A stretch of 59,619 nt of DNA, taken from assembly GCA_900617105.1 (NCBI GenBank), contig UYFQ01000369.1, positions 1 through 59,619 on the forward strand, written 5' to 3'. The position numbers and the translations under genes are program-made. Source of the DNA: Hydrurus foetidus. Taxonomy: Eukaryota. This document shows, piece after piece, positions 4,583-56,660 of the stretch; the first letter of the stretch is position 1, and every line of letters starts with the position of its first letter. The notes beneath the pieces were generated by a model. That model worked only from the letters and a program-made list of their open reading frames with translations, ran no database searches and was not told the DNA's origin.

Positions 4583-4613
4583 GATACTATTTTGCATCCC
4601 TCTTCGTCTCCTC

Positions 4614-4768
4614 ATACTTACCTGTTCGTCGGATGTAGAGGATCAACCAGCTCTATACCGGTACGCGGAGCAAACCATGGCATAACTGGTGCTTGTGATG
4701 CGTATTGCAGTCAGAAAGGATTCGCAACGGAATAATTTTTTGTCATTGGGGTAGCGTTTACGCACCCC
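4614..4768 (+). ncRNA. U1: U1 snRNA (first copy, slightly variant)
   Basis: ATACTTACCTG start, Sm site and SL4 present. C>A change in SL3 (GTCAGAAAGGA). Confidence 0.85.
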
Positions 4769-5114
4769 TTCCCTTCCACTTCAACCTGTACGACACCACA
4801 CTGTACAACACGACACAACACAAACAAAACAAAAACACACACATACTCACTATTCTACCCTACCTGCCAACTACATCAAATGAGTTACTGTTTACTCATT
4901 TCACATTACAATATCAATTACGCAATCAAGCAATGCAACTTGCAATCATCGATTAATTGACAATGTCGCGACGATGTGCATGATCTAGACATCGATGTGG
5001 CGGCTAGCTATATTATGGAATATACCTCATTAGTCGAAATGTGTATATACACATCTGGTGTACATATGATGCATATTAGGACTGATACTATTTTGCATCC
5101 CTCTTCGTCTCCTC

Positions 5115-5268
5115 ATACTTACCTGTTCGTCGGATGTAGAGGATCAACCAGCTCTATACCGGTACGCGGAGCAAACCATGGCATAACTGGTGCTTGTGAT
5201 GCGTATTGCAGTCCGAAAGGATTCGCAACGGAATAATTTTTGTCATTGGGGTAGCGTTTACGCACCCC
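5115..5268 (+). ncRNA. U1: U1 snRNA (representative copy, ~154 nt)
   Basis: 5' ATACTTACCTG; helix H TTCG/CGGA; SL1 stem ending AGAG/CTCT with loop GATCAACCAG (human GAUCACGAAG); SL2 TACGC...GCGTA; SL3 with a GAAA loop; Sm site ATAATTTTTG; SL4 GGGGTAGCG-TTTA-CGCACCCC. Confidence 0.95.
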
Positions 5269-5528
5269 TTCCCTTCCCTTACCAACACAACACAACACTA
5301 CAAACCAAACAAAACAAAACAAAACCACACACATACTCACTATTCTACCCTACCTGCCAACTACATCAAATGAGTTACTGTTTACTCATTTCACATTACA
5401 ATATCAATTACGCAATCAAGCAATGCAACTTGCAATCATCGATTAATTGACAATGTCGCGACGATGTGCATGATCTAGACATCGATGTGGCGGCTAGCTA
5501 TATTATGGAATATACCTCATTAGTCGAA

Positions 5529-5606
5529 ATGTGTATATACACATCTGGTGTGTACATATGATGCATATTAGGACTGATACTATTTTGCATCCCTCTTCGT
5601 CTCCTC
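5529..5606 (+). promoter_or_regulatory. Putative snRNA proximal promoter region (representative; present in every unit)
   Basis: Near-invariant sequence upstream of U1, including the 16-bp palindrome ATGTGTATATACACAT at -78 to -63, about where PSE/USE elements lie. Function is inferred from position only. Confidence 0.4.
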
Positions 5607-8600
5607 ATACTTACCTGTTCGTCGGATGTAGAGGATCAACCAGCTCTATACCGGTACGCGGAGCAAACCATGGCATAACTGGTGCTTGTGATGCGTATTG
5701 CAGTCCGAAAGGATTCGCAACGGAATAATTTTTGTCATTGGGGTAGCGTTTACGCACCCCTTCCCTTCCCTTACCAACACAACACAACACAACACAACAC
5801 AAACAAAACAAAACAAAACCACACACATACTCACTATTCTACCCTACCTGCCAACTACATCAAATGAGTTACTGTTTACTCATTTCACATTACAATATCA
5901 ATTACGCAATCAAGCAATGCAACTTGCAATCATCGATTAATTGACAATGTCGCGACGATGTGCATGATCTAGACATCGATGTGGCGGCTAGCTATATTAT
6001 GGAATATACCTCATTAGTCGAAATGTGTATATACACATCTGGTGTGTACATATGATGCATATTAGGACTGATACTATTTTGCATCCCTCTTCGTCTCCTC
6101 ATACTTACCTGTTCGTCGGATGTAGAGGATCAACCAGCTCTATACCGGTACGCGGAGCAAACCATGGCATAACTGGTGCTTGTGATGCGTATTGCAGTCC
6201 GAAAGGATTCGCAACGGAATAATTTTTGTCATTGGGGTAGCGTTTACACCCCCCTTCCCACCAACACAACACAACACAACACAAACAAAACAAAACAAAA
6301 ACAAAACCACACACATACTCACTATTCTACCCTACCTGCCAACTACATCAAATGAGTTACTGTTTACTCATTTCACATTACAATATCAATTACGCAATCA
6401 AGCAATGCAACTTGCAATCATCGATTAATTGACAATGTCGCGACGATGTGCATGATCTAGACATCGATGTGGCGGCTAGCTATATTATGGAATATACCTC
6501 ATTAGTCGAAATGTGTATATACACATCTGGTGTGTACATATGATGCATATTAGGACTGATACTATTTTGCATCCCTCTTCGTCTCCTCATACTTACCTGT
6601 TCGTCGGATGTAGAGGATCAACCAGCTCTATACCGGTACGCGGAGCAAACCATGGCATAACTGGTGCTTGTGATGCGTATTGCAGTCCGAAAGGATTCGC
6701 AACGGAATAATTTTGTCATTGGGGTAGCGTTTACGCACCCTTCCCTTCCATTACCAACACAACCAACACAACACAAACAAACAAAACAAAACCACACACA
6801 TACTCACTATTCTACCCTACCTGCCAACTACATCAAATGAGTTACTGTTTACTCATTTCACATTACAATATCAATTACGCAATCAAGCAATGCAACTTGC
6901 AATCATCGATTAATTGACAATGTCGCGACGATGTGCATGATCTAGACATCGATGTGGCGGCTAGCTATATTATGGAATATACCTCATTAGTCGAAATGTG
7001 TATATACACATCTGGTGTGTACATATGATGCATATTAGGACTGATACTATTTTGCATCCCTCTTCGTCTCCTCATACTTACCTGTTCGTCGGATGTAGAG
7101 GATCAACCAGCTCTATACCGGTACGCGGAGCAAACCATGGCATAACTGGTGCTTGTGATGCGTATTGCAGTCCGAAAGGATTCGCAACGGAATAATTTTT
7201 GTCATTGGGGTAGCGTTTACGCACCCCTTCCCTTCCCTTACCAACACAACACAACACAACACAAACAAAACAAAACAAAACAAAACCACACACATACTCA
7301 CTATTCTACCCTACCTGCCAACTACATCAAATGAGTTACTGTTTACTCATTTCACATTACAATATCAATTACGCAATCAAGCAATGCAACTTGCAATCAT
7401 CGATTAATTGACAATGTCGCGACGATGTGCATGATCTAGACATCGATGTGGCGGCTAGCTATATTATGGAATATACCTCATTAGTCGAAATGTGTATATA
7501 CACATCTGGTGTGTACATATGATGCATATTAGGACTGATACTATTTTGCATCCCTCTTCGTCTCCTCATACTTACCTGTTCGTCGGATGTAGAGGATCAA
7601 CCAGCTCTATACCGGTACGCGGAGCAAACCATGGCATAACTGGTGCTTGTGATGCGTATTGCAGTCCGAAAGGATTCGCAACGGAATAATTTTTGTCATT
7701 GGGGTAGCGTTTACGCACCCCTTCCCTTACCAACACAACACAACACAACACAATACAAACCAAACAAAACAAAACAAAACAAAACCACACACATACTCAC
7801 TATTCTACCCTACCTGCCAACTACATCAAATGAGTTACTGTTTACTCATTTCACATTACAATATCAATTACGCAATCAAGCAATGCAACTTGCAATCATC
7901 GATTAATTGACAATGTCGCGACGATGTGCATGATCTAGACATCGATGTGGCGGCTAGCTATATTATGGAATATACCTCATTAGTCGAAATGTGTATATAC
8001 ACATCTGGTGTGTACATATGATGCATATTAGGACTGATACTATTTTGCATCCCTCTTCGTCTCCTCATACTTACCTGTTCGTCGGATGTAGAGGATCAAC
8101 CAGCTCTATACCGGTACGCGGAGCAAACCATGGCATAACTGGTGCTTGTGATGCGTATTGCAGTCCGAGTTCGGCGTTAACAATGGTAGCGTTTACGCAC
8201 CCCTTCCCTTCCCTTCCCTTACCAACACAACACAACACAACACAACACAAACAAAACCACACACATACTCACTATTCTACCCTACCTGCCAACTACATCA
8301 AATGAGTTACTGTTTACTCATTTCACATTACAATATCAATTACGCAATCAAGCAATGCAACTTGCAATCATCGATTAATTGACAATGTCGCGACGATGTG
8401 CATGATCTAGACATCGATGTGGCGGCTAGCATATTATGGTGCCATCATTAGTTAAATGTGTATATACACATCGGTGTGCTGGTGCATAAGACTGATACTA
8501 TTTTGCATCCCTCTGCTCATCCCCTTTTCGTCGGATGGATAACCAGCTCACGGTTGCGCAGACCATGGATAACTGGTGTTGTGATGCGTGGCAGTCCGAA

Positions 8601-8955
8601 AGGATTCGCAACGGTACATTGGCCGGGTGGCATTTTGCTTCCTTCCGCCACAGCTGGCTGGCGGCACAAACACGTGAAGCTGAAAACAAACAAAACCTTC
8701 TTCATTTAGCAACTTACCATCAAATGAGTTACTGTTTTACCATTTACTGCATTTTCAGCATCGGTGCTCAAGCAATGCAACTTGCAATCATCAGATTAAT
8801 TGACAATTAGAACAGTGCATGATCTAGACATCGATGTGGCGGCTAGCTATATTATGGAATATACCTCATTAGTCGAAATGTGTATATACACATCTGGTGT
8901 GTACATATGATGCATATTAGGACTGATACTATTTTGCATCCCTCTTCGTCTCCTC

Positions 8956-9005
8956 ATACTTACCTGTTCGTCGGATGTAGAGGATCAACCAGCTCTATAC
9001 CGGTA
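8956..9005 (+). pseudogene. U1: U1 snRNA 5' fragment interrupted at +50 by DNA transposon 1
   Basis: U1 sequence stops at ...CCGGTA and is followed by the transposon end TTACGACCGCAGAATAAAA. Confidence 0.9.
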
Positions 9006-9208
9006 TTACGACCGCAGAATAAAAGTAGCAGTTTCGCACTGAAATCGTGGACAAGGGGGGGTACACACTCACTTCGAAGTGTGGAAGGGTGGGGGTGCAC
9101 GACATGAATATAGTGAGAACAAAGAAGACCTCATCTAGCCTGAGCACTTCTTATCCCTGCTTAATGTCAGTACTCTCATCACTTTATTGCGGTTGAGTTC
9201 AATTTGCG

Positions 9209-10231
9209 ATGACGAAAGACAAATCTCATCGTCAACTATTCGTGTCAAAAGTTTTGAATGATCATTTTTCAGTGAAGGATGCAGCTATCCACTGTAATAT
9301 TTCTTACAACACTGGAAGAAATTGGATGAGGATGCTGAATCGCATTGGGAATTACTATCCTCTGCGACATCGAAGGTCTATCCCTGGTGTGATGTCCCTG
9401 GATCATCAGGAGATATTGCAGATGGTCATTAGCAATAACAGGATGGCCATGATTGACGAAATTACTCAGTCTATGAGTGAGGAAACTGGATTTCATTATT
9501 CACCTCGCCTCATAAGACAAGTAATGTCTCGCCATAAGTATGTTTCTCGGCTAGCTAACGAGTTATCACCTCTTGAGCGTGATAATGAGTTGAGACGCTA
9601 CTATCGAGAACAAGTCATGCATCCTGGTGGAAACTTTACGTCAACTCAACTAGTTTTTGTTGACGAATGTTCGAAGAAACTGGGGAATGCGACAAGAAAA
9701 AGAGCATGGCGTGTCAAAGGCGACAAAGTCTCATTGCCTGTTATTCATTCCGGAAGTGGTAATGCAGCTTCATTGATAGCTTCAATGACTGTTCGAGGTA
9801 TTCAATCGGTCTCTGTCATTGATGTGGTAGAGGAAGGAAATGTAAACGGAGATCGCTTCATGGAGGCTTTTGTCAATGACATATTGGTTTACTGTGAGCC
9901 TTATCCTGGTCGTTGTTCTGTCATTGTTATGGATAATGCTGCGGTTCACATGAAATTATTGATTTCAGCAGCTTGTCAGGAGAGAGGAGTCATTGTCATT
10001 TATCTCCCACCTTATAGTTTTGATTTCAATCCTATTGAGCTCGTTTTTAATACAGCCTTGTCTAAATTGTTGAAGGTCTATGGTAGAACTCTCCTTCCTC
10101 CCAACTCTAAAATAGGTGATTTATTTAGAGATTGCCTCCTGAATTGTTTGACACCTGATAAAGCATGTAACATGTTTGAAAAGTGTCATATCTCTGTTTC
10201 TGTCCAAGATAGAGAATGGGCAAATGTGTAA
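9209..10231 (+). CDS. Tc1/IS630-family DD34E transposase
   Basis: N-terminal HTH-like region; LVFVDE...MDNAAVH...LPPYSFDFNPIE with 34 residues between the second D and the E. Confidence 0.93.
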   Translation: MTKDKSHRQLFVSKVLNDHFSVKDAAIHCNISYNTGRNWMRMLNRIGNYYPLRHRRSIPGVMSLDHQEILQMVISNNRMAMIDEITQSMSEETGFHYSPRLIRQVMSRHKYVSRLANELSPLERDNELRRYYREQVMHPGGNFTSTQLVFVDECSKKLGNATRKRAWRVKGDKVSLPVIHSGSGNAASLIASMTVRGIQSVSVIDVVEEGNVNGDRFMEAFVNDILVYCEPYPGRCSVIVMDNAAVHMKLLISAACQERGVIVIYLPPYSFDFNPIELVFNTALSKLLKVYGRTLLPPNSKIGDLFRDCLLNCLTPDKACNMFEKCHISVSVQDREWANV

Positions 10232-10268
10232 TTGTTATTTCCATTTTATTCTCATTATTTTTATGGTT

Positions 10269-10345
10269 AAGTCACCGCGATTTTTCAAACAATCACGGTG
10301 ACTTCTCAAAAAATCACGGTGACTTTTTTTGAATCACGGTGACTT
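10269..10345. repeat. Cluster of AATCACGGTGACTT motifs (4 copies)
   Basis: Inverted variant at 10269; direct copies at 10291, 10312 and 10332. Confidence 0.85.
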
Positions 10346-10885
10346 CTATTTTTCAATAACCGAACTACTATTACATTGCTATAGTAATGTAATTAATTGA
10401 AGTAGATGCAAAACCATTTTTCATTTTGATCCTAAAGTGACGTTTAATTTGAATTATAAATTTCACTATCGTGGATACCAGCCTATCAAATGTAACAATT
10501 GGATACCGCCGTCTAGTGGATAATCGACTCTCCTCGACTCCTTATTTTCTCAAGCCACGAAATATGATTTTTGTATCGTTGCTTTTGTTATATATTAATG
10601 TCAAACTATGATTATTTATTATCGATCATCATTATCATCACGCAAGTATATCTTATCATTGCGCTTACAAATTACTCTAGGATACTATTTTCCTATCGTT
10701 TATTGATGCAGTAATTCATATCGCACTGTGTATTCATATCATTATATATGTCACGAAAGAAGATTTTATTAGTGCGCCGAAATACCATATGAATCGAGTA
10801 GAATTACGATTTGTATCATGACCGATTTGTTTCATCATTTACATTGAATTATGTGCACCTTTTATTTAGTATTTTTTGCCCTAAT

Positions 10886-12998
10886 CTATAAGGACTCTGG
10901 AGTTAGTAATAGATCATCGACAATGAAAGAATCAATATTCAGTTTATATGTTTTAATTTTCTTTAAACTCTTAGTTGTCATATCATGATTTGGATCAACA
11001 ATCTGAATTCTGTCTTTGTAAATACCGACAACCACCACATAGTCTCCTTCCTTTAATTTAAAAGTGTTTTCTTTCTCCACCGGTTTTGTTATTTTCCATT
11101 CGTGTGTGCCCGTTTCTCCACTGAATTTTCTATTTAACGATGCTGTTTTCATAATATTAAATTCTATTTCAATTTGAGTATTGTCCTGTTGTTTGATTGA
11201 TGCCGTACCGATTTTACAGTTGTTGCCAATATCAAGATCATATTCATTCATTGACAATTGATTTGATTTTCTAGCATTTGTTATTTTTTTAGCTTTTGCA
11301 ATTACGTCATCATTTTCATGGATATAGGTAGTAAATGTATTATAATTATCTTCGTCAAAAATTTGTTCCTCTGACTTTGTAATAGGTGTAACAAACATTG
11401 ATGATGACGACGAGGAGGAGGAAGAGGAGGAAGAGGAGGAGGAACAGGAGGGATTTCTGTTTTTATTCCGGATAAATGCTCGGTCAAGAAGAGATTTTCC
11501 TATATTATTGTTTTTTTGAATGTCGATGATTGATGGAAAATTCATTTTCCAATTTACTTTTAATTGAGCTTTAATTTCTAACTTATCTTCTATTAGATTG
11601 ACAGGAGTCAAATCATCGGGGAAACAGGATACACCATGATTGTATGATCCTGCAAAAATTATTGATAAAACATCAGCTAAATGTTTGCTCTGTGGATCTT
11701 TTATTCCAGTATACTCTGATTCTTGGGAGTCAAATTTAAAAAGACGTTCAATATCTTTACTTTTAATTTCCTTCAATTCTTCGAATATTGCTATCTTTTT
11801 ATTTTGCACATTTTTTGTATTCATATTATTTGCTAATACATTTGCTCCATGATATCCGTTAGCCGCAATTCTATTTTTTGCATTTTTAAATGAATAGTTG
11901 TCTATGTTAGGATCATCTTCAAAATCATCTTGACCCCATTGCATTAGTAGGGGTTTTTTACTATGGGGAAACCACGTGTCATCTAAACCGTAAAAATAAG
12001 TTTGACCTACGGTTATTGATGTTCCTATGCTAGCACCATCTGCTGCCCTAATAATATTAAATTAAACTATCTTAATTTTTCATGTTTTTAAAGTAATAAA
12101 GTGAAGCTAAAGATATTCATTTATTCAACTTACTTTAAATACCCAGCCAGATCGTTGTGAATATTCATCAAAGAGGAGGAATTGATGAAGATGTTTCTTG
12201 GATCATTATATTCCTCATTTAATTTCATTTGCAAGTGATAACGCGCTTGTGGACTTATTTTTGGATGTCCTTTGACCTACAAAGAAGCAATAACAATTTT
12301 GAGAGTCCATTCAAATACTCGTCAAACTATATTTCATATAGTTATTTGGACATACCTCCATTAGTCCAACACTAATAGTCCAAGGTGCTACGAAGATTTG
12401 TTTATTTGAAAATTTCGATGGAAAGACATCTAATTGGTCATCGACATCAGGTACTCGAATGAGTGTCTTCTTTAGGAAAAAGAATGGACCCGAAGTACAG
12501 TACTGCAATAGATAAATTGATAAATAAATTGATAATTAAGTTTTAAGTAAATGCGTGTATACACGAATTTGAAAATCTTACATTGTATTCGGGATTATTT
12601 GTATTCGACAATTTGCTAGAATTTTGAGGATCACTTCCTACTTTGATTTGGTTAAGTACGTTTCGAGCCAACTCCCCAAAATGACTTATAACCAAACTGT
12701 GCAAGACGCTTGCATTTATCGTTGGGGGCTCAATATTGTTTCGGGCGTCGTCCATATCAATTCTAGAGAGGTATCTGCCTGATTGGTTTAGTTCAATCTT
12801 TAAGCTTTTCTTTGTTTGAGAAAATGCCAATGTTTCTTTATTTACTGAGATGATATACACAGTGATTGTCAGTTTCCCATCCGTGGATGGCATTATGATA
12901 TCTTCATCTCTCCTTCTTTTTCGTGGAGCGATGACAACAACGTCGGTGTTGGTTTCCTCTTCAATGATAACATCGGGTACAGATGGAAAGTCACTCAT
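10886..12998 (-). CDS. Multi-exon accessory protein of transposon 1, unknown function
   Basis: ORF pieces 12543-12998, 12311-12508 and 10886-11944 are joined by GT-AG introns (e.g. ~12503-12581, GTAAG...TTGCAG). NLS-like PRKRRR. Homologous to 43342-45527. Confidence 0.8.
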
Positions 12999-13119
12999 TT
13001 TTGATGAGGCTCTGAAGCATACTGCGACGATTTAAAACTGTGATCAGTGACCGAACAAGAGGAATGTTAGGATTTGACATTTTGAACGGACTTTAATGTC
13101 AACTTTGACAGCAACACTC

Positions 13120-13181
13120 GTCACCGTGATTGAAAAAGTCACCGTGATTTTGGTCCTAAAACCGCAAAAGTCACCGTGATT
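13120..13181. repeat. Cluster of (AA)GTCACCGTGATT motifs (3 copies) in the divergent promoter region
   Basis: Copies at 13120, 13136 and 13168; reverse complement of the 10.3-kb motif. Confidence 0.85.
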
Positions 13182-13243
13182 GTCGCTGAACCCTCGCACG
13201 AATCATGCTCAGAGGATGAGTCACCTTATCTCACATATTCACG

Positions 13244-14083
13244 ATGAGTAAATGTGAAGCGGACGTCGATGGTGAACCCTGTGGAAAGGAGAAGCACATA
13301 CAGCCAAATGGTCAAATCAGAGCATTGTGCAAAATTCATTTCATGGAGAAAAACCAAATGAGAAAAAGGCAATTAAAACTGACCTTGTCAATGGAGCATC
13401 TCAAAGACAAAAGAGCCAAGGAAATTGACCAAGACAGGAAGAGAAGAATCCGATATGTGGCTTCAAGAGCAGCAACGTTGGCGGCGATCCCTGCGGCGAA
13501 CGTCAGAAGAATCGCTGAGCAGCTTGACAAGATCAAAAATGATCAGGAATATGTGATAATAGGAACTGTCATCGAGGATACATTGGATCTCCTGGATGTA
13601 GTCACTGAAGGAGAGATAGAGCCAATCACTTTCTCAGAAGAAGCTGGGCCACCTTTGAGAACAATGCAGAAAGTTAGCAATGAGAGAGACATCATCGGTG
13701 ATGTGCTCGAAGCGATAGAGATTGTTTTCCCAGGATGCAAAACTATCGGCGTCAAGCTCCTTAGATCAGAGAAAGGTAATCTAGCACAAAAACTTCATAC
13801 TGATCACGTGCCAGATCCAAAATCATCCAAAAGACTCAAAGACTTAAAAGTCTTCCACTACTCTGCATTGATAGCGTTGATGGAAAATACATTCTTGTAT
13901 GTTGGATCACTAGATGAAAAAGTACGCATTCCTAAATCAAGCATGCTTTTCTTCAGAGGTGATATGGTTCACGCAGGATCAGATTATCAGATTGAAAATT
14001 ACAGACTATTCATTTCTGCTTCATCCATTGACTATCCCTCAACTTTGGACGTTTCGATTAACTATCCCTCGACTGAAAAATGA
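13244..14083 (+). CDS. 2OG-Fe(II) dioxygenase (PhyH-like fold) with a putative N-terminal Zn finger
   Basis: QKLHTDH (HxD)...FFRGDMVHAG (distal H)...NYRLFIS (2OG-binding R). N-terminus has a C...C...CKIH pattern. Confidence 0.75.
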   Translation: MSKCEADVDGEPCGKEKHIQPNGQIRALCKIHFMEKNQMRKRQLKLTLSMEHLKDKRAKEIDQDRKRRIRYVASRAATLAAIPAANVRRIAEQLDKIKNDQEYVIIGTVIEDTLDLLDVVTEGEIEPITFSEEAGPPLRTMQKVSNERDIIGDVLEAIEIVFPGCKTIGVKLLRSEKGNLAQKLHTDHVPDPKSSKRLKDLKVFHYSALIALMENTFLYVGSLDEKVRIPKSSMLFFRGDMVHAGSDYQIENYRLFISASSIDYPSTLDVSINYPSTEK

Positions 14084-14262
14084 AACGTTACATCCCTCGA
14101 CTAAATAAAAAAAGGTTACATTCGAATGAAAGAAACTTTTACGGCAAACTTTCGAACAAGTCACACATGTAAAAGACATGAGGAGTTCAATGGCAATTGC
14201 AATTTGCGTGAAACAGTGAGAGAATAGCGTGGCCTATTGAAAGATTACCTTTAATACTAAAA

Positions 14263-14477
14263 AATCACGGTGACTTTTTCAGAAGTCACCGTGATTAGAA
14301 GAGCGGATACCTTAAAGACATCAGAATAGTCAACACAGTAGAAACAACAGACATCAGAAGAAGGTGAGTCATGGTTATTTTGTTAAGAGTAAAAAGCGGT
14401 AACCAAATATTGTAAATACAAAGCATAAATCACGGTGACTTTCAAAAAAGTTGATAAGTGATATGACACGGTGACTT
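14263..14477. repeat. Third cluster of AATCACGGTGACTT motifs
   Basis: Inverted pair at 14263/14283; further copies at 14428 and 14467 (partial). Confidence 0.8.
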
Positions 14478-14559
14478 GGCATTTCAATGGAGCTGATTGA
14501 ATAGAAAATGGGAAAGTACCTGCTCAAGATAAGTAATATATCGATTGAAATTTTTAACT

Positions 14560-15300
14560 TTTAGTTAAGACAAGACCACATCAGAAGGGTCAGAGCACGA
14601 AGAACTGTTGTTCCTATCATGATACGGCCTTGTCCGACTTCAAAATTGGGTTTCACCCGAATAAAATAATCAATTGATATTACAAATATTTCAAATCAAA
14701 AATGTAGCAGCAGCTAACATCAGACATTTTGTTGGCTAAACTGTCCGCGGTAAGTTTTAAAGAAATGTTGCGCATGGAGTTGTCATAAAGTAAATGCTCA
14801 TCAGCAGCACGAATGAATACACCAACAGCATGATACAGATTGCTTTGTTCCGTTAGCAATGATGCCGTATAATTTGAATCAATTCGTTCATACCGGTACG
14901 CACGCAATCTCTTCATCTGCTTCCGATGCGCATCATTATTCCACTTAGCTTTCCCAAAAGAATGTACTGACCAACACGACCATTCATTAGTTTATAAACA
15001 CTGGCACCATTGAACTTAGAGGTGCTATTTCACTTTTTTTACCCTTCGCCAAACACATTCAACATTGATGTTTCTGTAGATAAGTCTGATTTAGCCATCT
15101 AAGATATAAATTTACATCCAATCAGAAATGCCTTTGGTAACCTTCTGACATGGGTAGCAATTATGGTCTTCTTGCAAGATTCATCGACGACAATTCCCGT
15201 CCATCTGAAAGGGTAAGGAGATAATATGGAGAATTGCATCCAAAATTGAATGGGTTTGGCCTTAAATGCAATTTGATAATTGGATTCCTCAAAATCAGCT
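14560..15300 (-). CDS. Possible further transposon-borne gene (fragmented or spliced)
   Basis: ORF pieces 14680-14916 and 15099-15300 have protein-like composition. The 5' part is lost in the garbled region. Confidence 0.3.
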
Positions 15301-16124
15301 TTGGAGAGGAGTACACATCTCCCAAATAGTACAACAACACAAACAGTCATGCGTATTGCATTCCGGGATTCGCAACGGAATTTCTTTGTCATTGCCTTCT
15401 TTGCACCCTGACTTCTTTTACTCATTTTCACTTTCACAACAATCAAAACAAACAAGAATGCAAACTTGCAAAGATTTCGACCAATGTTCAACTTTGAATA
15501 TCAGACAATCGACAGTCGCGCAATTGCATGGATTAGACAAGTTGGAGATAGCATGATTGACATATACCTCATCGAAAGTGTATACATATCTGGTATGTAC
15601 ATATGATGCATATTAGACTTCTTGTGCACCCTCTGCGTCCTGATACTTCCTGTTCGTCTCTGTACTCTATTCCCAGTCTATACCGGTACGCGGAGCAAAC
15701 CATGGCATAACTGGTGCTTGTGATGCGTATTGCAGTCCGAAAGGATTCGCAACGGAATAATTTTTGTCATTGGGGTAGCGTTTACGCACCCCTTCCCTTC
15801 CCTTACCAACACAACACAACACACAAACAAAACAAAACAAAACCACACACATACTCACTATTCTACCCTACCTGCCAACTACATCAAATGAGTTACTGTT
15901 TACTCATTTCACATTACAATATCAATTACGCAATCAAGCAATGCAACTTGCAATCATCGATTAATTGACAATGTCGCGACGATGTGCATGATCTAGACAT
16001 CGATGTGGCGGCTAGCTATATTATGGAATATACCTCATTAGTCGAAATGTGTATATACACATCTGGTGTGTACATATGATGCATATTAGGACTGATACTA
16101 TTTTGCATCCCTCTTCGTCTCCTC

Positions 16125-16278
16125 ATACTTACCTGTTCGTCGGATGTAGAGGATCAACCAGCTCTATACCGGTACGCGGAGCAAACCATGGCATAACTGG
16201 TGCTTGTGATGCGTATTGCAGTCCGAAAGGATTCGCAACGGAATAATTTTTGTCATTGGGGTAGCGTTTACGCACCCC
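16125..16278 (+). ncRNA. U1: U1 snRNA (first intact copy of block B)
   Basis: Same sequence as the representative copy. Confidence 0.95.
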
Positions 16279-29029: not shown

Positions 29030-29128
29030 ATATCGATATTTGGTCGATACCAAAGTTTTTTCGAGAGAAGTTCGTTTCTCCGCTCCATCAATTTTAAATC
29101 CATCACGTAATTCCGACAGTCGAAGACA

Positions 29129-32100
29129 ATGGCTCTCCGACGCCAGGACAAGAGGATTAGCACCATCAACTCCCTTCGCCGACAACGACAGCCTCCTAGA
29201 GCTGTCGCCGTCGCCTTCCGACAACGTTACGAGGAGCACCACAATCGTGGAGGAGATAGCATCGAGTCTCCTGGGCCACCTGCGGCTCAGGACCCCGCCG
29301 GCGACCTGTCTGCACCGATTCCTCAGCGGAATTCGGAGCCTGCGGTCTCGTCTGTTATTGATGCTCCTGTTTTATCTGCTTTATCCGCTCTAACGTTATC
29401 ACCAGTTTCGACTGCGACACCAGCTTCGGCTGAGATACCAGCTTCGGCTGCGACACCAGATTCGTCTGCGACACCAGCTTCGGCTGAGATTCCTCGTTCG
29501 ATGGCACCACCTCAGCACTATGTGCAAACGGGTGAGAGAGCTCCTAAGTTGAGCGCCGTGCCCTCTCGTCAGGAAGTACTACGGGTAATGGAGGTCCTCC
29601 TTTCAAATGGAACTCCATTTAAACCAGTTGATGTAATCCATGTTTCCAACCATCAATCGTTTACAACGCTTCTCAAGCGTAAGTTTGCAACTGATCCCGA
29701 TCGTCGCGACTCCTGTAACAATTGGAAACATTGGTCGAATCAATTGTTCTGTAGAGAACTCAATCTCACAGTTCCTACATCAGCTGTCAATCGAACTGAC
29801 AAGCTGAGTTTCATTGAAACTGTCTCTCAGGTCGCACTTCAATTCGACCTGAAGGATAAATCAGTGGAAGACAAGACAGATCAGCTTTTAGCTGATATTG
29901 TTGATGGATTCCCTGATGCAACACCCGCTCTCCAACTTCAGGCAACCAAAATTCTAATCGATAAGTTGCCTGTCGAACCTATCAATTGGAGAGCAGTGTT
30001 ACAGCGTAGTCTTAACAATACAACGCCAAGACTCATTACAATCGAAGACTTTCGATTCGTATGGCTTGCGCAGCTTGCTAAGCTACGAGAATCAATTGAT
30101 GCCTTACGGTTCATTGATGTCTCTCCTTTGTATGGTGATCACTCTCGCCAAATCAAAGCTCCTCCTCGTTCCTCTCAGGACAAAATCAAAAACGTCCACG
30201 AGAGAGCGAACAATCTGTGCAATCAGACAAGTCTGACAAATTCGAAAGACCTCTGTGCACAGGTTGTGGGAGACTCGGCCATTTCGTCGCCACGTGTTTT
30301 TACACTACGTCTCCGTACTATAACAGTACAGACGCACCCTATATCAACTCTGAGGGTCATAAGCAGTTGTTGAAAGTCGATTCAAAGGCTAAGTTTATTC
30401 CAACTTTACCTAAGACATCGACCTCTTCTTCATCGTCTTCCTCTTCTTCTTCCTCTTCGTCAAAACCTGCTACATCAACAGCAGACTCGACAAACGCTGC
30501 GAAGAAACACAAAGGTGAGCAACTATGCAACCTAAATTCATCATCTATTCTTTCCGATGATCCAGAACTTATTCCTTTCTTCGTATCTCCCCTCTCACAG
30601 GAGGTTATGCTGGAAAAAAGTAATAGAGTCTTTACTCTCCTGGACACCGGCTCTTTTGCTGGCAACTTTATACATCGCCGCATCATAATTAATCATAATT
30701 TCACACAATTCGTATCTAACTCTTCAAAGAAATTGTGTAAAGTTTGTAGTGGATTAGATAATCATTGTTATGATATTTCTGACACTATAGACTTAACTCT
30801 TTCTTATTTTTGCCCTGATTTAAATAATTATTATACTTTTCAAATCACGGCTTATGTTTTAGACGATTCGAAATTTGATCTAATAGTGGGACGAAAAACA
30901 ATTCGCGAATTGAATTTATTTTCACGTTTCCCCGATCAAATATCTGCCAATGCTTCATCAAACACTACCTCATTAGCGGAAGTTTTATCTTCTGAACAAG
31001 TGGATATAACGTGTGGCTGTCAGCCTAAGGAGAAGTTGCAACCCTCTGATGGCTCCCCAAAGGTCGATCCTTTAACCCAAAAGGTGAAACCGGCAGTAAC
31101 CCAAACACACGTTATTCTAGCTTCACTAATACAAGAGTCTGAAAGACTTTTTGAGGCTGTGCCCCCTGATGAGGACGAAATCGACGACTCGATCAAGGAC
31201 TCGTTTTCACCTTGGATAGATGAATTTCCTGATACTGACCCACTCTCGCTAATAAACTTAGCAGGTGATGAAGATCAGAAAAATAAACTTCGGTTACTAG
31301 TACACGAATTCAAGGATATATTTAGCAGTGAACTTTCGGCCACTCCTGCTAATATTCCACCCTTTGACTTTCATGTCAATGACGACCAATGGAGAGTCTC
31401 TAAAAATAGACAACCTCCATGGTCTAAATCAACAGTTGATCAAGCTGACATTCTTAGTCAAATTAAAAACTTGAAAAACAAAATATTGTTGAAAAATCAA
31501 ACGCGGCTTATTATAGCCAAGTTTTACTAGTTCCTAAATCTGATGGAACTAAGCGCATGTGTATTGATTTTCGGAATCTCAACAATTGTACCGAAGATAA
31601 ATCACATCCTATTCCACACATCGGTGAGATGTTGCGTCGAATAGGTGCACATAAAGCAAAAGTGTTTGCTGTACTTGATCTCACTCAAGGTTACCATCAA
31701 GCACCACTTACACTCGCTGCACGTGCTTATACTGCATTCATACTATTCTGCGGAGTATATCAATTCACTCGTTTACCCTTTGGGCCAAAACAAGCACCCT
31801 CCTATTTCCAACAGATTATGACGACTGTTGTGTTAGCAGGGCTGATATACTCTATATGCGAAATGTACATAGATGATTGCAATGTTTTCGGTAAAGACAT
31901 TGACGAACTCATTTCTAGACTTCGTCTTGTTTTTGAACGTTTTAGAAAACACAAAATATTCCTTAAACCGAATAAGTGTTATCTAGGCTATGCCGAAATA
32001 GATTATGTTGGCAAAGTTCTATCTGCAGATGGACTTAGAATGTCACAAGAAAAAATACGGACTGTCTTAGATTTTCCTAAACCAGTACTATCTAAACAAC

Positions 32101-34033
32101 TCAAAAGTTTTTAGGATTGGTTAATTATTTTCACGACTTTGTTAGAAACGCTTCTACTGTTGTATACCCGTTACATCAGTTGCTTCTTAACTATAATAAG
32201 TATAAGAAAATAACTTGGACAATAGAAGCTCTCAGAGCATTCAATTTGATCAAATCCGAGATTTCAAAATGCACGACTATGCACTTTTTAAGTGACACCG
32301 ATCCGATTTACTTGCACACTGATGCATCGGACTATGGTGTAGGTGCCTATCTTTTCCAGCTAGTTGACGGTCAAGAGACGCCCATAGCATTTGTCAGTAA
32401 ATCACTTAACAAAGCTCAGCTTCGTTGGGCTGTTATACAAAAAGAAGCATATGCTATCTTTTATTCGTGCACGTATTTAAAATCGCTATTACGTGATCGT
32501 ACGTTCACATTGCGTACAGATCATCGTAACTTGTTATACATCAAGGATAATTCAAATCCAATGATTGTTCGGTGGTTTATGGCCTTATCCGAATATTCAT
32601 TTAAAATTGAATATATACCTGGTGCTAACAATGATATAGCTGATTCGATGTCTCGACTCTGTCGCAATAACATGGTTGATTTCCCTCAGGAATATACTCC
32701 TGATGCAATCATGTCTGCTAATACTATTGAAAAATTCAAACTAACACGTGATCAGTACAATACAATCAGTAAAGTACACAATTCACAAGTTGGGCATTTT
32801 GGCCTTGAGCGCACTTTAAAGCGTCTCATTGACAAAAAATAGTATGGCAATATATGCGTCAGCATGTCAGGTGGTTCATAGATCACTGTTCGTGTTGTCA
32901 GAAAATGAGTATGTTAAAGATACCAATACATGCTCATGGTTTCTCGACTTCTACTTACACACCTATGGAATGCCTTAACATAGACTTCATAGGACCGTTT
33001 CCAGACGGCGGGTACGTACTCGTAATTATCGATACGTTCACAAGATGGGTTGAACTGTTTCATACAGAAGATGCTACAGCACTTTCAACAGCTAAATGCC
33101 TCTTGCAACACTTCGGTCGTTTCGGCGCACCTCTCCAACTCCGTTCTGATAATGGGCCACACTTCATTTCCGAAGTTATTAGAGAGTTTCTAACTCTTAT
33201 TGGCACTCAACATTGTCTTACTTTAGCATATTCTAAAGAAGAAAATGCTATTGTTGAGCGCATGAATAAAGAAGTTAATAGACATCTTCGTGCATTAACA
33301 TTCGATAATGTCACACTAGAAGATTATAAAACGTCACTTCCATTTGTGCAACGAATTTTAAATTCTAATCACAGTGATCGTTTAAAAATATCATCTTCTC
33401 AACTTCTTTTCGGAAATGTACTCAAACTCGATAGAGGTATTTTTTACCTCCTGCTGAGCGAAATGTTACTGATGACAAACCTTTGTCAAAGCGTATGAGC
33501 AATCTACTCAAAACGCAAGACAGTCTTCTTAAAGCTTCTGCTAAAGAACTTCTTCGCACAGATTTGCTTCATCAAAGTCAGTCTCAAGTTTTTCAGCATG
33601 TAGATTATCCAAAAGACTCTTATGTCTTAGTGCACTATCGCGATGGATCCCTCCTTCACGTCTTCACACGCATTGGAGAGGCCCATTAAAAGTCGTTAGT
33701 GGCGAAAATTCGCGTTACACACTTTATGATTTAGTCACTCAGAAAACTTCAGAGTTTCATGTTTCTGCAATGAAACCTTTTCTATTTGACCCTTCAATCA
33801 CAAATCCGTTGGATGTTGCACGACGTGATCACATGGAATACTTTGTTGAAGACATTCTTGATCATCGTGGCAAACACCAACGTACCCACATAGAGTTTTT
33901 AGTCAAATGGTTAAATTACCCTTCAGACAAAAACACTTGGGAACCTTATTCAAGTCTTCGTGATGTTGATAAACTTCATGATTATTTACGTCATAATAAC
34001 ATGACTAAATTAATCAATAAGCAACATAGATGA
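29129..34033 (+). CDS. gag-pol: Gypsy A gag-pol (frameshifted into several ORFs)
   Basis: CCHC knuckle CTGCGRLGHFVATC; protease LLDTGS; RT MCIDFR/LPFG/YIDD; RNase H TDAS; integrase HHCC with IDFIG/SDNG/ER; chromodomain VEDILDHR...FLVKW...TWEP. Confidence 0.93.
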
Positions 34034-34233
34034 CTTAATATATTTGAAACTTTATCCATGAGGATTCTCTCCTATTTTTTTTACCTACGGGTCTTTTTTG
34101 GAGAGTTTAGTCAGTAAAAGTCTGACATCATCGTTTCATCTATATCTCATATATATGTTTTACATATCTTTTCTTTTTTTTCATTTTTTTTGTATATCAT
34201 ATCAAAGATCTTCAAAAAAGGAAGAAGGGGTAG

Positions 34234-34495
34234 TGTAGCCTTATTGCATTCCTAAGGGGATACAATGTGTCTAGGTTAACTAGGTACAATAGGTATATTA
34301 CGCCCAGATTCCACTTTTAGGTCTTAGTTCCACATATGACGTGAATGCACTTTAGCGTACACATCACTTGTAGATACTCAACTGTAAAATACTAACACAA
34401 GTTTACTCCACCTATCCTTCCTTCCCTTGCCCACCGCTTGCATCAACCGACCACCACTTTTAGCTCCAACGTCCTAGGCCCCGCCCAAGACCACA
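34234..34495 (+). repeat. Gypsy A 3' LTR
   Basis: Follows the PPT; direct repeat of 28768-29029. Confidence 0.95.
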
Positions 34496-34528
34496 CTGAT
34501 ACTATTTTGCATCCCTCTTCGCCTCCTC

Positions 34529-34682
34529 ATACTTACCTGTTCGTCGGATGTAGAGGATCAACCAGCTCTATACCGGTACGCGGAGCAAACCATGGCATAA
34601 CTGGTGCTTGTGATGCGTATTGCAGTCCGAAAGGATTCGCAACGGAATAATTTTTGTCATTGGGGTAGCGTTTACGCACCCC
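34529..34682 (+). ncRNA. U1: U1 snRNA copy separated from its upstream promoter by Gypsy A
   Basis: Intact U1 sequence 33 bp downstream of the 3' LTR. Confidence 0.9.
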
Positions 34683-37600
34683 TTCCCTTCCCTTCCATTA
34701 CCAACACAACACAACACAACACAAACAAAACAAAACCACACACATACTCACTATTCTACCCTACCTGCCAACTACATCAAATGAGTTACTGTTTACTCAT
34801 TTCACATTACAATATCAATTACGCAATCAAGCAATGCAACTTGCAATCATCGATTAATTGACAATGTCGCGATGATGTGCATGATCTAGACATCGATGTG
34901 GCGGCTAGCTATATTATGGAATATACCTCATTAGTCGAAATGTGTATATACACATCTGGTGTGTACATATGATGCATATTAGGACTGATACTATTTTGCA
35001 TCCCTCTTCGTCTCCTCATACTTACCTGTTCGTCGGATGTAGAGGATCAACCAGCTCTATACCGGTACGCGGAGCAAACCATGGCATAACTGGTGCTTGT
35101 GATGCGTATTGCAGTCCGAAAGGATTCGCAACGGAATAATTTTTGTCATTGGGGTAGCGTTTACGCACCCCTTCCCTTCCCTTCCCTTACCAACACAACA
35201 CAACACAACACAAACAAAACAAAACCACACACATACTCACTATTCTACCCTACCTGCCAACTACATCAAATGAGTTACTGTTTACTCATTTCACATTACA
35301 ATATCAATTACGCAATCAAGCAATGCAACTTGCAATCATCGATTAATTGACAATGTCGCGACGATGTGCATGATCTAGACATCGATGTGGCGGCTAGCTA
35401 TATTATGGAATATACCTCATTAGTCGAAATGTGTATATACACATCTGGTGTGTACATATGATGCATATTAGGACTGATACTATTTTGCATCCCTCTTCGT
35501 CTCCTCATACTTACCTGTTCGTCGGATGTAGAGGATCAACCAGCTCTATACCGGTACGCGGAGCAAACCATGGCATAACTGGTGCTTGTGATGCGTATTG
35601 CAGTCCGAAAGGATTCGCAACGGAATAATTTTTGTCATTGGGGTAGCGTTTACGCACCCCTTCCCTTCCATTACCAACACAACACAACACAACACAAACA
35701 AAACAAAACCACACACATACTCACTATTCTACCCTACCTGCCAACTACATCAAATGAGTTACTGTTTACTCATTTCACATTACAATATCAATTACGCAAT
35801 CAAGCAATGCAACTTGCAATCATCGATTAATTGACAATGTCGCGACGATGTGCATGATCTAGACATCGATGTGGCGGCTAGCTATATTATGGAATATACC
35901 TCATTAGTCGAAATGTGTATATACACATCTGGTGTGTACATATGATGCATATTAGGACTGATACTATTTTGCATCCCTCTTCGTCTCCTCATACTTACCT
36001 GTTCGTCGGATGTAGAGGATCAACCAGCTCTATACCGGTACGCGGAGCAAACCATGGCATAACTGGTGCTTGTGATGCGTATTGCAGTCCGAAAGGATTC
36101 GCAACGGAATAATTTTTGTCATTGGGGTAGCGTTTACGCACCCCTTCCCTTCCCTTCCCTTACCAACACAACACAACACAAACAAAACAAAACCACACAC
36201 ACACTCACTATTCTACCCTACCTGCCAACTACATCAAATGAGTTACTGTTTACTCATTTCACATTACAATATCAATTACGCAATCAAGCAATGCAACTTG
36301 CAATCATCGATTAATTGACAATGTCGCGACGATGTGCATGATCTAGACATCGATGTGGCGGCTAGCTATATTATGGAATATACCTCATTAGTCGAAATGT
36401 GTATATACACATCTGGTGTGTACATATGATGCATATTAGGACTGATACTATTTTGCATCCCTCTTCGTCTCCTCATACTTACCTGTTCGTCGGATGTAGA
36501 GGATCAACCAGCTCTATACCGGTACGCGGAGCAAACCATGGCATAACTGGTGCTTGTGATGCGTATTGCAGTCCGAAAGGATTCGCAACGGAATAATTTT
36601 TGTCATTGGGGTAGCGTTTACGCACCCCTTCCCTTCCATTACCAACACAACACAACACAAACAAAACAAAACCACACACATACTCACTATTCTACCCTAC
36701 CTGCCAACTACATCAAATGAGTTACTGTTTACTCATTTCACATTACAATATCAATTACGCAATCAAGCAATGCAACTTGCAATCATCGATTAATTGACAA
36801 TGTCGCGACGATGTGCATGATCTAGACATCGATGTGGCGGCTAGCTATATTATGGAATATACCTCATTAGTCGAAATGTGTATATACACATCTGGTGTGT
36901 ACATATGATGCATATTAGGACTGATACTATTTTGCATCCCTCTTCGTCTCCTCATACTTACCTGTTCGTCGGATGTAGAGGATCAACCAGCTCTATACCG
37001 GTACGCGGAGCAAACCATGGCATAACTGGTGCTTGTGATGCGTATTGCAGTCCGAAAGGATTCGCAACGGAATAATTTTTGTCATTGGGGTAGCGTTTAC
37101 GCACCCCTTCCCTTCCCTTACCAACACAACACAACACAACACAAACAAAACAAAACAAAACCACACACATACTCACTATTCTACCCTACCTGCCAACTAC
37201 ATCAAATGAGTTACTGTTTACTCATTTCACATTACAATATCAATTACGCAATCAAGCAATGCAACTTGCAATCATCGATTAATTGACAATGTCGCGACGA
37301 TGTGCATGATCTAGACATCGATGTGGCGGCTAGCTATATTATGGAATATACCTCATTAGTCGAAATGTGTATATACACATCTGGTGTGTACATATGATGC
37401 ATATTAGGACTGATACTATTTTGCATCCCTCTTCGTCTCCTCATACTTACCTGTTCGTCGGATGTAGAGGATCAACCAGCTCTATACCGGTACGCGGAGC
37501 AAACCATGGCATAACTGGTGCTTGTGATGCGTATTGCAGTCCGAAAGGATTCGCAACGGAATAATTTTTGTCATTGGGGTAGCGTTTACGCACCCCTTCC

Positions 37601-40600
37601 CTTCCCTTCCATTACCAACACAACACAACACAAACAAAACAAAACAAAACCACACACATACTCACTATTCTACCCTACCTGCCAACTACATCAAATGAGT
37701 TACTGTTTACTCATTTCACATTACAATATCAATTACGCAATCAAGCAATGCAACTTGCAATCATCGATTAATTGACAATGTCGCGACGATGTGCATGATC
37801 TAGACATCGATGTGGCGGCTAGCTATATTATGGAATATACCTCATTAGTCGAAATGTGTATATACACATCTGGTGTGTACATATGATGCATATTAGGACT
37901 GATACTATTTTGCATCCCTCTTCGTCTCCTCATACTTACCTGTTCGTCGGATGTAGAGGATCAACCAGCTCTATACCGGTACGCGGAGCAAACCATGGCA
38001 TAACTGGTGCTTGTGATGCGTATTGCAGTCCGAAAGGATTCGCAACGGAATAATTTTTGTCATTGGGGTAGCGTTTACGCACCCCTTCCCTTCCCTTCCC
38101 ACCCCAACACAACACAACACAAACAAAACAAAACCACACACATACTCACTATTCTACCCTACCTGCCAACTACATCAAATGAGTTACTGTTTACTCATTT
38201 CACATTACAATATCAATTACGCAATCAAGCAATGCAACTTGCAATCATCGATTAATTGACAATGTCGCGACGATGTGCATGATCTAGACATCGATGTGGC
38301 GGCTAGCTATATTATGGAATATACCTCATTAGTCGAAATGTGTATATACACATCTGGTGTGTACATATGATGCATATTAGGACTGATACTATTTTGCATC
38401 CCTCTTCGTCTCCTCATACTTACCTGTTCGTCGGATGTAGAGGATCAACCAGCTCTATACCGGTACGCGGAGCAAACCATGGCATAACTGGTGCTTGTGA
38501 TGCGTATTGCAGTCCGAAAGGATTCGCAACGGAATAATTTTTGTCATTGGGGTAGCGTTTACGCACCCTTCCCTTCCCTTCCATTACCAACACAACACAA
38601 CACAACACAAAACAAAAAAACCACACACATACTCACTATTCTACCCTACCTGCCAACTACATCAAATGAGTTACTGTTTACTCATTTCACATTACAATAT
38701 CAATTACGCAATCAAGCAATGCAACTTGCAATCATCGATTAATTGACAATGTCGCGACGATGTGCATGATCTAGACATCGATGTGGCGGCTAGCTATATT
38801 ATGGAATATACCTCATTAGTCGAAATGTGTATATACACATCTGGTGTGTACATATGATGCATATTAGGACTGATACTATTTTGCATCCCTCTTCGTCTCC
38901 TCATACTTACCTGTTCGTCGGATGTAGAGGATCAACCAGCTCTATACCGGTACGCGGAGCAAACCATGGCATAACTGGTGCTTGTGATGCGTATTGCAGT
39001 CCGAAAGGATTCGCAACGGAATAATTTTTGTCATTGGGGTAGCGTTTACGCACCCCTTCCCTTCCCTTCCATTACCAACACAACACAACACAAACAAAAC
39101 AAAACCACACACATACTCACTATTCTACCCTACCTGCCAACTACATCAAATGAGTTACTGTTTACTCATTTCACATTACAATATCAATTACGCAATCAAG
39201 CAATGCAACTTGCAATCATCGATTAATTGACAATGTCGCGACGATGTGCATGATCTAGACATCGATGTGGCGGCTAGCTATATTATGGAATATACCTCAT
39301 TAGTCGAAATGTGTATATACACATCTGGTGTGTACATATGATGCATATTAGGACTGATACTATTTTGCATCCCTCTTCGTCTCCTCATACTTACCTGTTC
39401 GTCGGATGTAGAGGATCAACCAGCTCTATACCGGTACGCGGAGCAAACCATGGCATAACTGGTGCTTGTGATGCGTATTGCAGTCCGAAAGGATTCGCAA
39501 CGGAATAATTTTTGTCATTGGGGTAGCGTTTACGCACCCCTTCCCTTACCAACACAACACAACACAAACAAAACAAAACCACACACACTCACTATTCTAC
39601 CCTACCTGCCAACTACATCAAATGAGTTACTGTTTACTCATTTCACATTACAATATCAATTACGCAATCAAGCAATGCAACTTGCAATCATCGATTAATT
39701 GACAATGTCGCGACGATGTGCATGATCTAGACATCGATGTGGCGGCTAGCTATATTATGGAATATACCTCATTAGTCGAAATGTGTATATACACATCTGG
39801 TGTGTACATATGATGCATATTAGGACTGATACTATTTTGCATCCCTCTTCGTCTCCTCATACTTACCTGTTCGTCGGATGTAGAGGATCAACCAGCTCTA
39901 TACCGGTACGCGGAGCAAACCATGGCATAACTGGTGCTTGTGATGCGTATTGCAGTCCGAAAGGATTCGCAACGGAATAATTTTTGTCATTGGGGTAGCG
40001 TTTACGCACCCCTTCCCTTCCCTTACCAACACAACACAACACAAACAAAACAAAATAAAACAAAACAAAACCACACACACTCACTATTCTACCCTATCTG
40101 CCAACTACATCAAATGAGTTACTGTTTACTCATTTCACATTACAATATCAATTACGCAATCAAGCAATGCAACTTGCAATCATCGATTAATTGACAATGT
40201 CGCGACGATGTGCATGATCTAGACATCGATGTGGCGGCTAGCTATATTATGGAATATACCTCATTAGTCGAAATGTGTATATACACATCTGGTGTGTACA
40301 TATGATGCATATTAGGACTGATACTATTTTGCATCCCTCTTCGTCTCCTCATACTTACCTGTTCGTCGGATGTAGAGGATCAACCAGCTCTATACCGGTA
40401 CGCGGAGCAAACCATGGCATAACTGGTGCTTGTGATGCGTATTGCAGTCCGAAAGGATTCGCAACGGAATAATTTTTGTCATTGGGGTAGCGTTTACGCA
40501 CCCCTTCCCTTCCCTTCCCTTACCAACACAACACAACACAAACAAAACAACACACACACTCACTATTCTACCCTACCTGCCAACTACATCAAATGAGTTA

Positions 40601-41823
40601 CTGTTTACTCATTTCACATTACAATATCAATTACGCAATCAAGCAATGCAACTTGCAATCATCGATTAATTGACAATGTCGCGACGATGTGCATGATCTA
40701 GACATCGATGTGGCGGCTAGCTATATTATGGAATATACCTCATTAGTCGAAATGTGTATATACACATCTGGTGTGTACATATGATGCATATTAGGACTGA
40801 TACTATTTTGCATCCCTCTTCGTCTCCTCATACTTACCTGTTCGTCGGATGTAGAGGATCAACCAGCTCTATACCGGTACGCGGAGCAAACCATGGCATA
40901 ACTGGTGCTTGTGATGCGTATTGCAGTCCGAAAGGATTCGCAACGGAATAATTTTTGTCATTGGGGTAGCGTTTACGCACCCCTTCCTTTCCCATCCCAA
41001 CACAACACACAACACAACACAACACAACACAAACAAAACAAAACCAGATCACACACACACTCACTATTCTACCCTACCTGCCAACTACATCAAATGAGTT
41101 ACTGTTTACTCATTTCACATTACAATATCAATTACGCAATCAAGCAATGCAACTTGCAATCATCGATTAATTGACAATGTCGCGACGATGTGCATGATCT
41201 AGACATCGATGTGGCGGCTAGCTATATTATGGAATATACCTCATTAGTCGAAATGTGTATATACACATCTGGTGTGTACATATGATGCATATTAGGACTG
41301 ATACTATTTTGCATCCCTCTTCGTCTCCTCATACTTACCTGTTCGTCGGATGTAGAGGATCAACCAGCTCTATACCGGTACGCGGAGCAAACCATGGCAT
41401 AACTGGTGCTTGTGATGCGTATTGCAGTCCGAAAGGATTCGCAACGGAATAATTTTTGTCATTGGGGTAGCGTTTACGCACCCCTTCCCTTCCCTTCCAT
41501 TACCAACACAACACAACACAACACACACAAACAAAACAAAACCACACACACACTCACTATTCTACCCTACCTGCCAACTACATCAAATGAGTTACTGTTT
41601 ACTCATTTCACATTACAATATCAATTACGCAATCAAGCAATGCAACTTGCAATCATCGATTAATTGACAATGTCGCGACGATGTGCATGATCTAGACATC
41701 GATGTGGCGGCTAGCTGTATTATGGAATATACCTCATTAGTCGAAATGTGTATATACACATCTGGTGTGTACATATGATGCATATTAGGACTGATACTAT
41801 TTTGCATCCCTCTTCGTCTCCTC

Positions 41824-41865
41824 ATACTGACCTGTTCGTCGGATGTAGAGGATCAACCAGCTCTA
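41824..41865 (+). pseudogene. U1: U1 5' fragment (variant ATACTGACCTG) interrupted at +42 by DNA transposon 2
   Basis: U1 stops at ...CAGCTCTA and is followed by the TIR. Confidence 0.9.
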
Positions 41866-56649: not shown

Positions 56650-56660
56650 AGAGTTCTGGA

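Follow-up and report, generated by a model that had tools for sequence, protein, structure and literature searches.

Genes for the U1 small nuclear RNA (snRNA) are transcribed by RNA polymerase II (Pol II) in the eukaryotes studied, and in Xenopus and sea urchins they lie in homogenised tandem arrays with units of 1-2 kb. As of 2015, according to the accessible text of PMC4640811, targeting of snRNA genes had been reported for Keno, Utopia, Dada-U1 and Dada-U6, with weak specificity in some Utopia families. The accessible portions of PMC3706591 and PMC8869645 describe zebrafish Dada-U1A and Dada-U1B as inserting at one identical U1 site, with no terminal inverted repeats (TIRs) and with target-site duplications (TSDs) of 6-7 bp. 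At genes of RNA polymerase III (Pol III), the excerpts of PMC6101501 and PMC4600332 place most copies of two long terminal repeat (LTR) elements on target, namely DGLT-A (18 of 20) and Tj1 (13 of 17, at tRNA genes), and a published test of specificity asks for more than 20% of flanks in the target (PMC4494074, methods excerpt). Here, we analysed a window of 59,619 nucleotides from Hydrurus foetidus (contig UYFQ01000369.1, the whole stretch studied; all coordinates refer to it), in which a tandem U1 array meets a Copia-type LTR retrotransposon, a Ty3/Gypsy chromovirus and two IS630-like DD34E transposons, called elements 1 and 2. A preliminary description of this window had implied that the array is a safe haven for U1-specialised transposons. 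Our preferred reading, to which we give a probability of about 0.5, is that a genuine, homogenised array of U1 genes lies within a transposon nest and has two local insertion hotspots, used by elements which also insert elsewhere, and not by four U1 specialists.

The U1 genes were searched with Infernal and the Rfam U1 model (RF00003), as the preliminary description had proposed, and 45 matches reached the gathering threshold of 69.5 bits. All were on the plus strand, covered the full model length and spanned 5115-41487; 44 copies scored 71.9 bits (E = 7e-16) and one scored 71.2 bits. The 157-nt gene was present in 44 letter-identical copies and in four with one or two differences (starts 4614, 6101, 6589 and 38416), which confirmed the earlier count of about 48 intact, near-identical genes. 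Beyond these 48, there were three noisy copies (8067, ~8516 and ~15637), one fragment (15346-15394) and two copies interrupted by elements (starts 8956 and 41824). The alignment showed the 5' splice-site pairing end, three stem-loops, the Sm site and the terminal stem-loop, and the fold had a z-score of -2.26, with 3 of 200 shuffles equally stable. Loops I and II departed from the Rfam consensus at several positions (e.g. 17096-17252), which may reflect co-evolved U1-70K and U1A proteins.

The compact unit of about 490 bp was also borne out, since 47 measured units were 472-501 bp long. Their variation lay almost entirely in a CCCTT/CAACA/CAAAA microsatellite directly 3' of U1, and the unit remainder of 273 bp was identical in 43 of the 47 units, the first letter excepted. 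The microsatellite types formed blocks, with 28 of 49 adjacent pairs alike, a value reached by 0 of 100,000 permutations. The blocks argue for a real, locally homogenised array over a collapsed consensus.

Public sequencing runs were consulted as well; the stretch was wholly or partly contained in 20 of 22 rows, and X1, X2, X3 and X21 were analysed. In the oligo-dT RNA run X21, which carries the same species label, at most 25 strand-specific reads lay over U1 compared with at most 0.7 over the spacer, a signal of 31 reads in total in which the U1 copy of origin is not distinguishable. A contig of X3 near 34940 matched the unit from about -78 on and differed upstream; it represents either a variant U1 locus or another gene with a shared promoter, and would bound the promoter.

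The junctions of the four elements with U1 were then placed on the unit. The 5' LTR of the minus-strand Copia element stops at 4582, where U1 upstream DNA picks up at -31, and the chromovirus is flanked by the 4-bp TSD CTGA at U1 -33 to -30. Element 1 begins at 9006, directly after the TA at U1 +49/50, and element 2 at 41866, directly after the TA at +41/42. The junctions, seen at -33, -31, +42 and +50, therefore fall where the preliminary description had put them, between -33 and +50 and in two tight pairs, the LTR pair spaced by 2 bp and the TA pair by 8 bp. Its count of four insertions holds in part: the junctions are real, but a two-sided insertion with a TSD was verified for the chromovirus only (one of the four), and the elements it had called Tc1 are better described as IS630-like DD34E. 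Two of the four junctions are borders of the array.

The spacing was compared with a chance model of uniform insertion into a 489-bp unit with 40 TA sites, for which the thresholds were chosen post hoc. Two uniform insertions came within 2 bp, as in the LTR pair, with p = 0.010, two TA insertions came within 8 bp with p = 0.056, and all four junctions fell in an 83-bp arc with p = 0.022; for both pairs jointly, p = 6e-4. These values suggest a hotspot and are short of proof. The sequence TA-TAC(C/A)G was read at the U1 site of element 2, at its right flank in the window and at a further flank in X1. It occurs at 12 of the 2325 TA sites (0.5%) of non-array DNA in the window and once per U1 unit, at +41. 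We consider it improbable that four unrelated junctions simply fell together in a transposon-saturated region, the pairs and the -33 to +50 interval being drawn afterwards. The modest single-pair and arc probabilities would fit such a coincidence, as would the selection of the window for this very pattern and the two junctions which are array borders; against it stand the joint probability, the sorting of the pairs by element class and the rarity of the common target motif.

All identified DNA outside the array in the window was transposon DNA, so the mere presence of elements in the array is unremarkable. Nor does harmlessness explain their positions, because all four probably disable their own unit and the spacer would be safer.

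The quality of the sequence around the junctions was also considered, as noisy long reads or repeat-driven misjoins could have made some of them. Deletion-rich stretches at ~8170-8820 and 15300-15680 flank element 1, whose right end is missing, with 103 deleted letters versus 46 mismatches within 8067-8955; these stretches probably represent unpolished long-read error. The chromovirus, in addition, has its coding region spread over several frames despite identical LTRs. All of this would be expected of an assembly artefact, which we nevertheless regard as very unlikely. The junctions lie exactly at element ends (TG..CA with a TSD; TA followed by TTAC), and a contig of X1 repeats the +42 junction without differences. 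The microsatellite pattern continues across the chromovirus, as the U1 units on both its sides share one minority type found in 9 of 50 units. The 185 bp adjoining the left end of element 1 are free of errors.

Whether the chromovirus depends on U1 was judged from contig depth. In the sediment metagenome X3, the single-contig depth was 909.5 for the chromovirus interior and 895.8 for U1, and contigs crossing -33 unbroken summed to 852.4, which is 95% of U1. At most about 5% of the family would thus sit at -33, and summed depths in X1 and X2 agreed in direction with X3. This result excludes a strict U1 specialist and leaves room for the family to be enriched here compared with the genome at large. 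Among the contigs listed for X1, X2 and X3, none linked U1 with the start of the chromovirus LTR, which was not counted as evidence because contigs lose rare junctions and the X1 contigs over U1 are very short.

Element 2 was found to be low-copy in X1, its interior contig having a depth of 243 compared with at least 79,000 for summed U1. On its right in the window, it abuts the middle of an integrase from another chromovirus, beyond which there is no U1. Depth arithmetic in X1 yielded a second left end at depth 58, to which a loose flank was provisionally assigned; this flank and its TA are non-U1 and agree with the Copia LTR start at 49045 in 9 of 10 letters. One of the three known flanks of element 2 is therefore U1 and two are non-U1, which makes strict U1 specificity, with nearly all copies at one site, doubtful, while a weaker preference for U1 in the DD34E lineage is possible. 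For element 1, close relatives of its predicted dioxygenase gene were located on two contigs (9084 and 7916 bp) that exceed the element plus one U1 unit per side, a weak hint of non-array flanks. Of the loose ends, 21 of 277 were seen for the U1/chromovirus data and 6 of 37 for element 2, and among the latter six, three looked like adapters and one was plain U1 continuation. Taken together, the safe-haven claim stands as far as the array and the clustering go, both being real and the clustering unlikely under uniform insertion; it does not extend to specialisation of the chromovirus, and a strict specialisation of element 2 is doubtful.

Under the preferred reading of two hotspots in a genuine array, the DD34E transposase of element 2 would favour TA followed by TAC(C/A)G, which U1, with its hundreds of copies, supplies once per unit at +41; element 1, a relative, would have used a TA 8 bp away within the same TACCGGTA palindrome. 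Two LTR integrases, one of them from a very abundant generalist family, may have exploited a position near -30 at which the promoter was exposed or bent. Unequal exchange would keep the units uniform and make the loss of a single unit cheap, so that insertions could persist for a while. A later rearrangement at the right end of element 2, either an adjacent deletion made by the transposase or a 5-bp microhomology deletion, would have severed the array.

Several points weigh against this reading. It draws on four junctions from one window, and the contig depth used for the chromovirus is an indirect measure, not a copy number, taken in X3 from one metagenome. The site of element 1 departs from the TA-TAC(C/A)G motif, which was read at three sites, one of which (the right flank) could derive from the U1 site by microhomology deletion, while the third consists of eight loose letters tied to their contig by depth arithmetic. 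Promoter accessibility at the LTR pair is a conjecture by analogy with Ty3, Tj1 and Tf1. Moreover, two DD34E families of only 49% identity have each inserted into U1, with one and the same orientation, and X1 contains a contig of 78 nt and depth 125 in which U1 +21 to +42 runs into the TIR without differences. The U1-joined left end thus carries about half the depth of element 2 (125/243), which fits a real U1 preference, although the contig holds 22 U1 letters, below the 31-letter bridging rule, X1 may be the source of the window itself, and a single event may be involved.

A reading which we hold to be unlikely, if not lightly dismissed, is that the DD34E lineage is a true U1-preferring group, low in copy number like Pokey in ribosomal DNA (rDNA); the Copia element would perhaps be tethered to the complex at the snRNA promoter, in the way that factors of tRNA genes tether Ty3 and DGLT-A. 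The low copy number of element 2, the share of its depth at the U1 junction and the placement of two divergent subfamilies 8 bp apart would follow from it, and the conserved accessory gene common to both could carry the targeting; weak specificity is also known among snRNA-targeting elements (accessible text of PMC4640811). However, the two subfamilies use different sites, whereas Dada-U1A and Dada-U1B share an identical one in the portion of PMC3706591 at hand, two of the three flanks of element 2 are non-U1, and the chromovirus fails on depth. The scans of metagenome, viral and prokaryote collections likewise gave no relative flanked by U1. When metagenome contigs were scanned for the TIR pattern, 20 loci came up, which had no more than this pattern in common with the elements and no match to an RNA family; scans of viral contigs for the transposase, the chromovirus, Copia, U1 and the TIR gave nothing close; and in prokaryote genomes there was distant IS630 only, at 26-50% identity over parts. 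A bolder version, in which the DD34E lineage came to prefer the 5' portion of U1 genes and two unrelated LTR integrases dock near -30 as a Pol II snRNA counterpart of Ty3/DGLT-A targeting, seems to us rather improbable.

The coordinates of the features are collected in the table.

Table. Positions of the U1 array and the transposons in the window
Feature	Position	Strand	Remarks
U1 array segment 1	4583..9005	+	7 genes that are intact or nearly so, plus 2 noisy units (~8170-8820); the last gene is interrupted at +50
U1 array segment 2	15346..28767	+	noisy up to ~15680, followed by 26 exact genes; stops at position -30 of the gene after these
U1 array segment 3	34496..41865	+	15 genes; final gene cut at +42
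Example U1 gene, 157 nt	17096..17252	+	5' splice-site pairing end and Sm site intact
IS630-like DD34E transposon 1	9006..15345	+	~6.3 kb; after TA at U1 +49/50
DD34E transposase of element 1	9209..10231	+	340 aa, intact
Accessory gene pieces, element 1	10886-12061, 12543-13031	-	common to element 2
Accessory open reading frame (ORF), element 1	13244..14083	+	four invariant Cys/His near N-terminus; predicted Fe(II)/2-oxoglutarate dioxygenase fold
IS630-like DD34E transposon 2	41866..47853	+	5988 bp; TIRs of ~61-64 bp with termini TTAC...GTAA, bordered by TA on either side
DD34E transposase of element 2	42062..43081	+	339 aa
Accessory gene pieces, element 2	43342-44346, 45147-45533	-	homologous to element 1 pieces
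Ty3/Gypsy chromovirus	28768..34495	+	identical 262-bp LTRs (28768-29029, 34234-34495); TSD CTGA
Copia-type LTR retrotransposon (left)	1..4582	-	402-bp 5' LTR at 4181-4582; primer-binding site (PBS); gag ORF with CCCH finger at 746-4093; integrase start
Complete Copia (right)	49045-57411		516-bp LTRs with 3 differences; 5-bp TSD; 1387-aa pol frame; sits in non-U1 DNA

Both DD34E transposases matched Pfam DDE_3 and scored 108.3 and 103.9 bits with the NCBIfam IS630 model (cut-off 100), and the DD34E spacing was counted directly in their alignment. The name IS630-like DD34E is more exact than Tc1 because of this spacing and these scores. Tc1 elements in the narrow sense are short and single-gene, with CAG termini; the family in that sense was ruled out by the size of ~6 kb, the several genes and the TTAC termini, a judgement made on structure rather than on a tree. 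TIRs with TA at both ends were present in element 2, while in element 1 the left end alone was visible; its right TIR was sought in the noisy 15300-15345 and was absent, 189 of 300 and 203 of 300 shuffles scoring as well, and U1 sequence returned from about +82 after the element. The nearest relatives of the transposases formed 47 clusters in metagenomes, at 45-99% identity.

The two pieces of the reverse-strand accessory gene shared by the elements were 25% (E = 1e-15) and 29% (E = 1e-13) identical. None of the searches of Pfam, NCBIfam and PDB sequences gave the accessory ORFs a name, and an Atlas look-up with the shared accessory protein gave no score above 0.84. For the 279-aa product of the further ORF in element 1, a structure model was obtained (mean predicted local distance difference test, pLDDT, 83). 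Compared with Fe(II)/2-oxoglutarate dioxygenases, the model had a best E of 3e-7 and matched 432 chains at E<=0.001, with TM-scores of just 0.3-0.5; H185, D187 and R254 were invariant and H243 was near-invariant. The ORF is accordingly named here a predicted 2-oxoglutarate dioxygenase. An N-terminal zinc finger is possible, and 19 relatives were found. In the metagenome protein P0046, the transposase start is fused to the end of this ORF, which indicates that the ORF probably travels inside the element. Because element 2 showed no homologue of it, a role as the shared targeting factor is unlikely. DD34E elements that carry several genes, a predicted dioxygenase among them, form an uncharacterised family, found here in metagenomes alone. 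Element 2 also holds a 72-bp repeat of 7.8 copies at 99% identity (45828-46387), open in a Pro/Thr-rich frame.

The chromovirus encodes reverse transcriptase (RT), RNase H, integrase and a chromodomain, in the order RT-RNase H-integrase, between LTRs of the TG..CA form. Its PBS region (29030-29060) opens with a short palindrome and has no obvious tRNA match; self-priming of the kind known from Tf1 is conceivable. A second, 5'-truncated chromovirus at 47854-49044 contains three copies of the chromodomain region, each of 175 bp and declining in quality, possibly a read artefact. The 3' end and RT of the left Copia element fall beyond the window, and its integrase directly follows gag-protease. 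This integrase was 51-56% identical, over the best segments, to that of the complete, RVT_2-bearing Copia on the right, and the PBS was the same. At 57582-59619, a purine tract and an apparent LTR start are broken by a reversed Copia RT region, which belongs to the transposon nest.

The literature searched, with subscription journals, Repbase reports and supplements outside its scope, held no report of a Tc1/IS630, Copia or chromovirus element preferring U1, in line with the earlier statement that no such specialists are known. A true U1 preference of the DD34E lineage would therefore be the first for the Tc1/mariner group within the reach of these searches. It would extend the list of U1-targeting elements (Dada-U1 alone as of 2015 in the accessible text of PMC4640811) to a TA-inserting superfamily usually deemed unspecific, and would allow tethering to snRNA promoters to be put to the test. 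Even with no specialist among these elements, a large, compact U1 array is a repeated natural target at which one read set can resolve the insertion preferences of several superfamilies to the base.

Compared with the arrays of Xenopus and sea urchins, the present unit of about 490 bp is shorter, while tandem U1 genes are homogenised in both. The ciliate elements TBE and Tec resemble elements 1 and 2 in joining a DD34E transposase with extra ORFs, with TIRs of ~80 bp in TBE versus ~60 here (PMC7325037, in part); unlike them, the accessory genes here are a conserved gene and a predicted 2-oxoglutarate dioxygenase, and the frames are open in the standard code. Tf1 at Pol II promoters and heterochromatin-directed chromoviruses are alike in that integration is guided by promoter or chromatin without gene specificity, and the present chromovirus does have a chromodomain (PMC4600332, excerpt); the portion of this literature covered gives no case of an snRNA array. 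Ty3, DGLT-A and Tj1 are likewise LTR elements that lie a constant, short way upstream of genes for small RNAs, according to the excerpts of PMC6101501 and PMC4600332; their targets are Pol III genes, whereas the gene here is U1 and the share of the chromovirus family that can be at the site is about 5% at most. Pokey in 28S rDNA and the weakly specific Utopia families in U2 show the non-exclusive preference for a multicopy RNA gene that would match a U1-preferring DD34E group (PMC3706591 and PMC4640811, accessible text); they differ in superfamily and target, and their preference was shown with many copies, as against one to three in the present case. The closest likeness is to Dada-U1A and Dada-U1B, which in the sources at hand are also DDE transposons within U1 genes, at low copy number in a host with hundreds of U1 copies. 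Unlike Dada, the elements described here are IS630-like DD34E transposons with TIRs and TA, inserted at two different sites in U1 and with non-U1 flanks as well.

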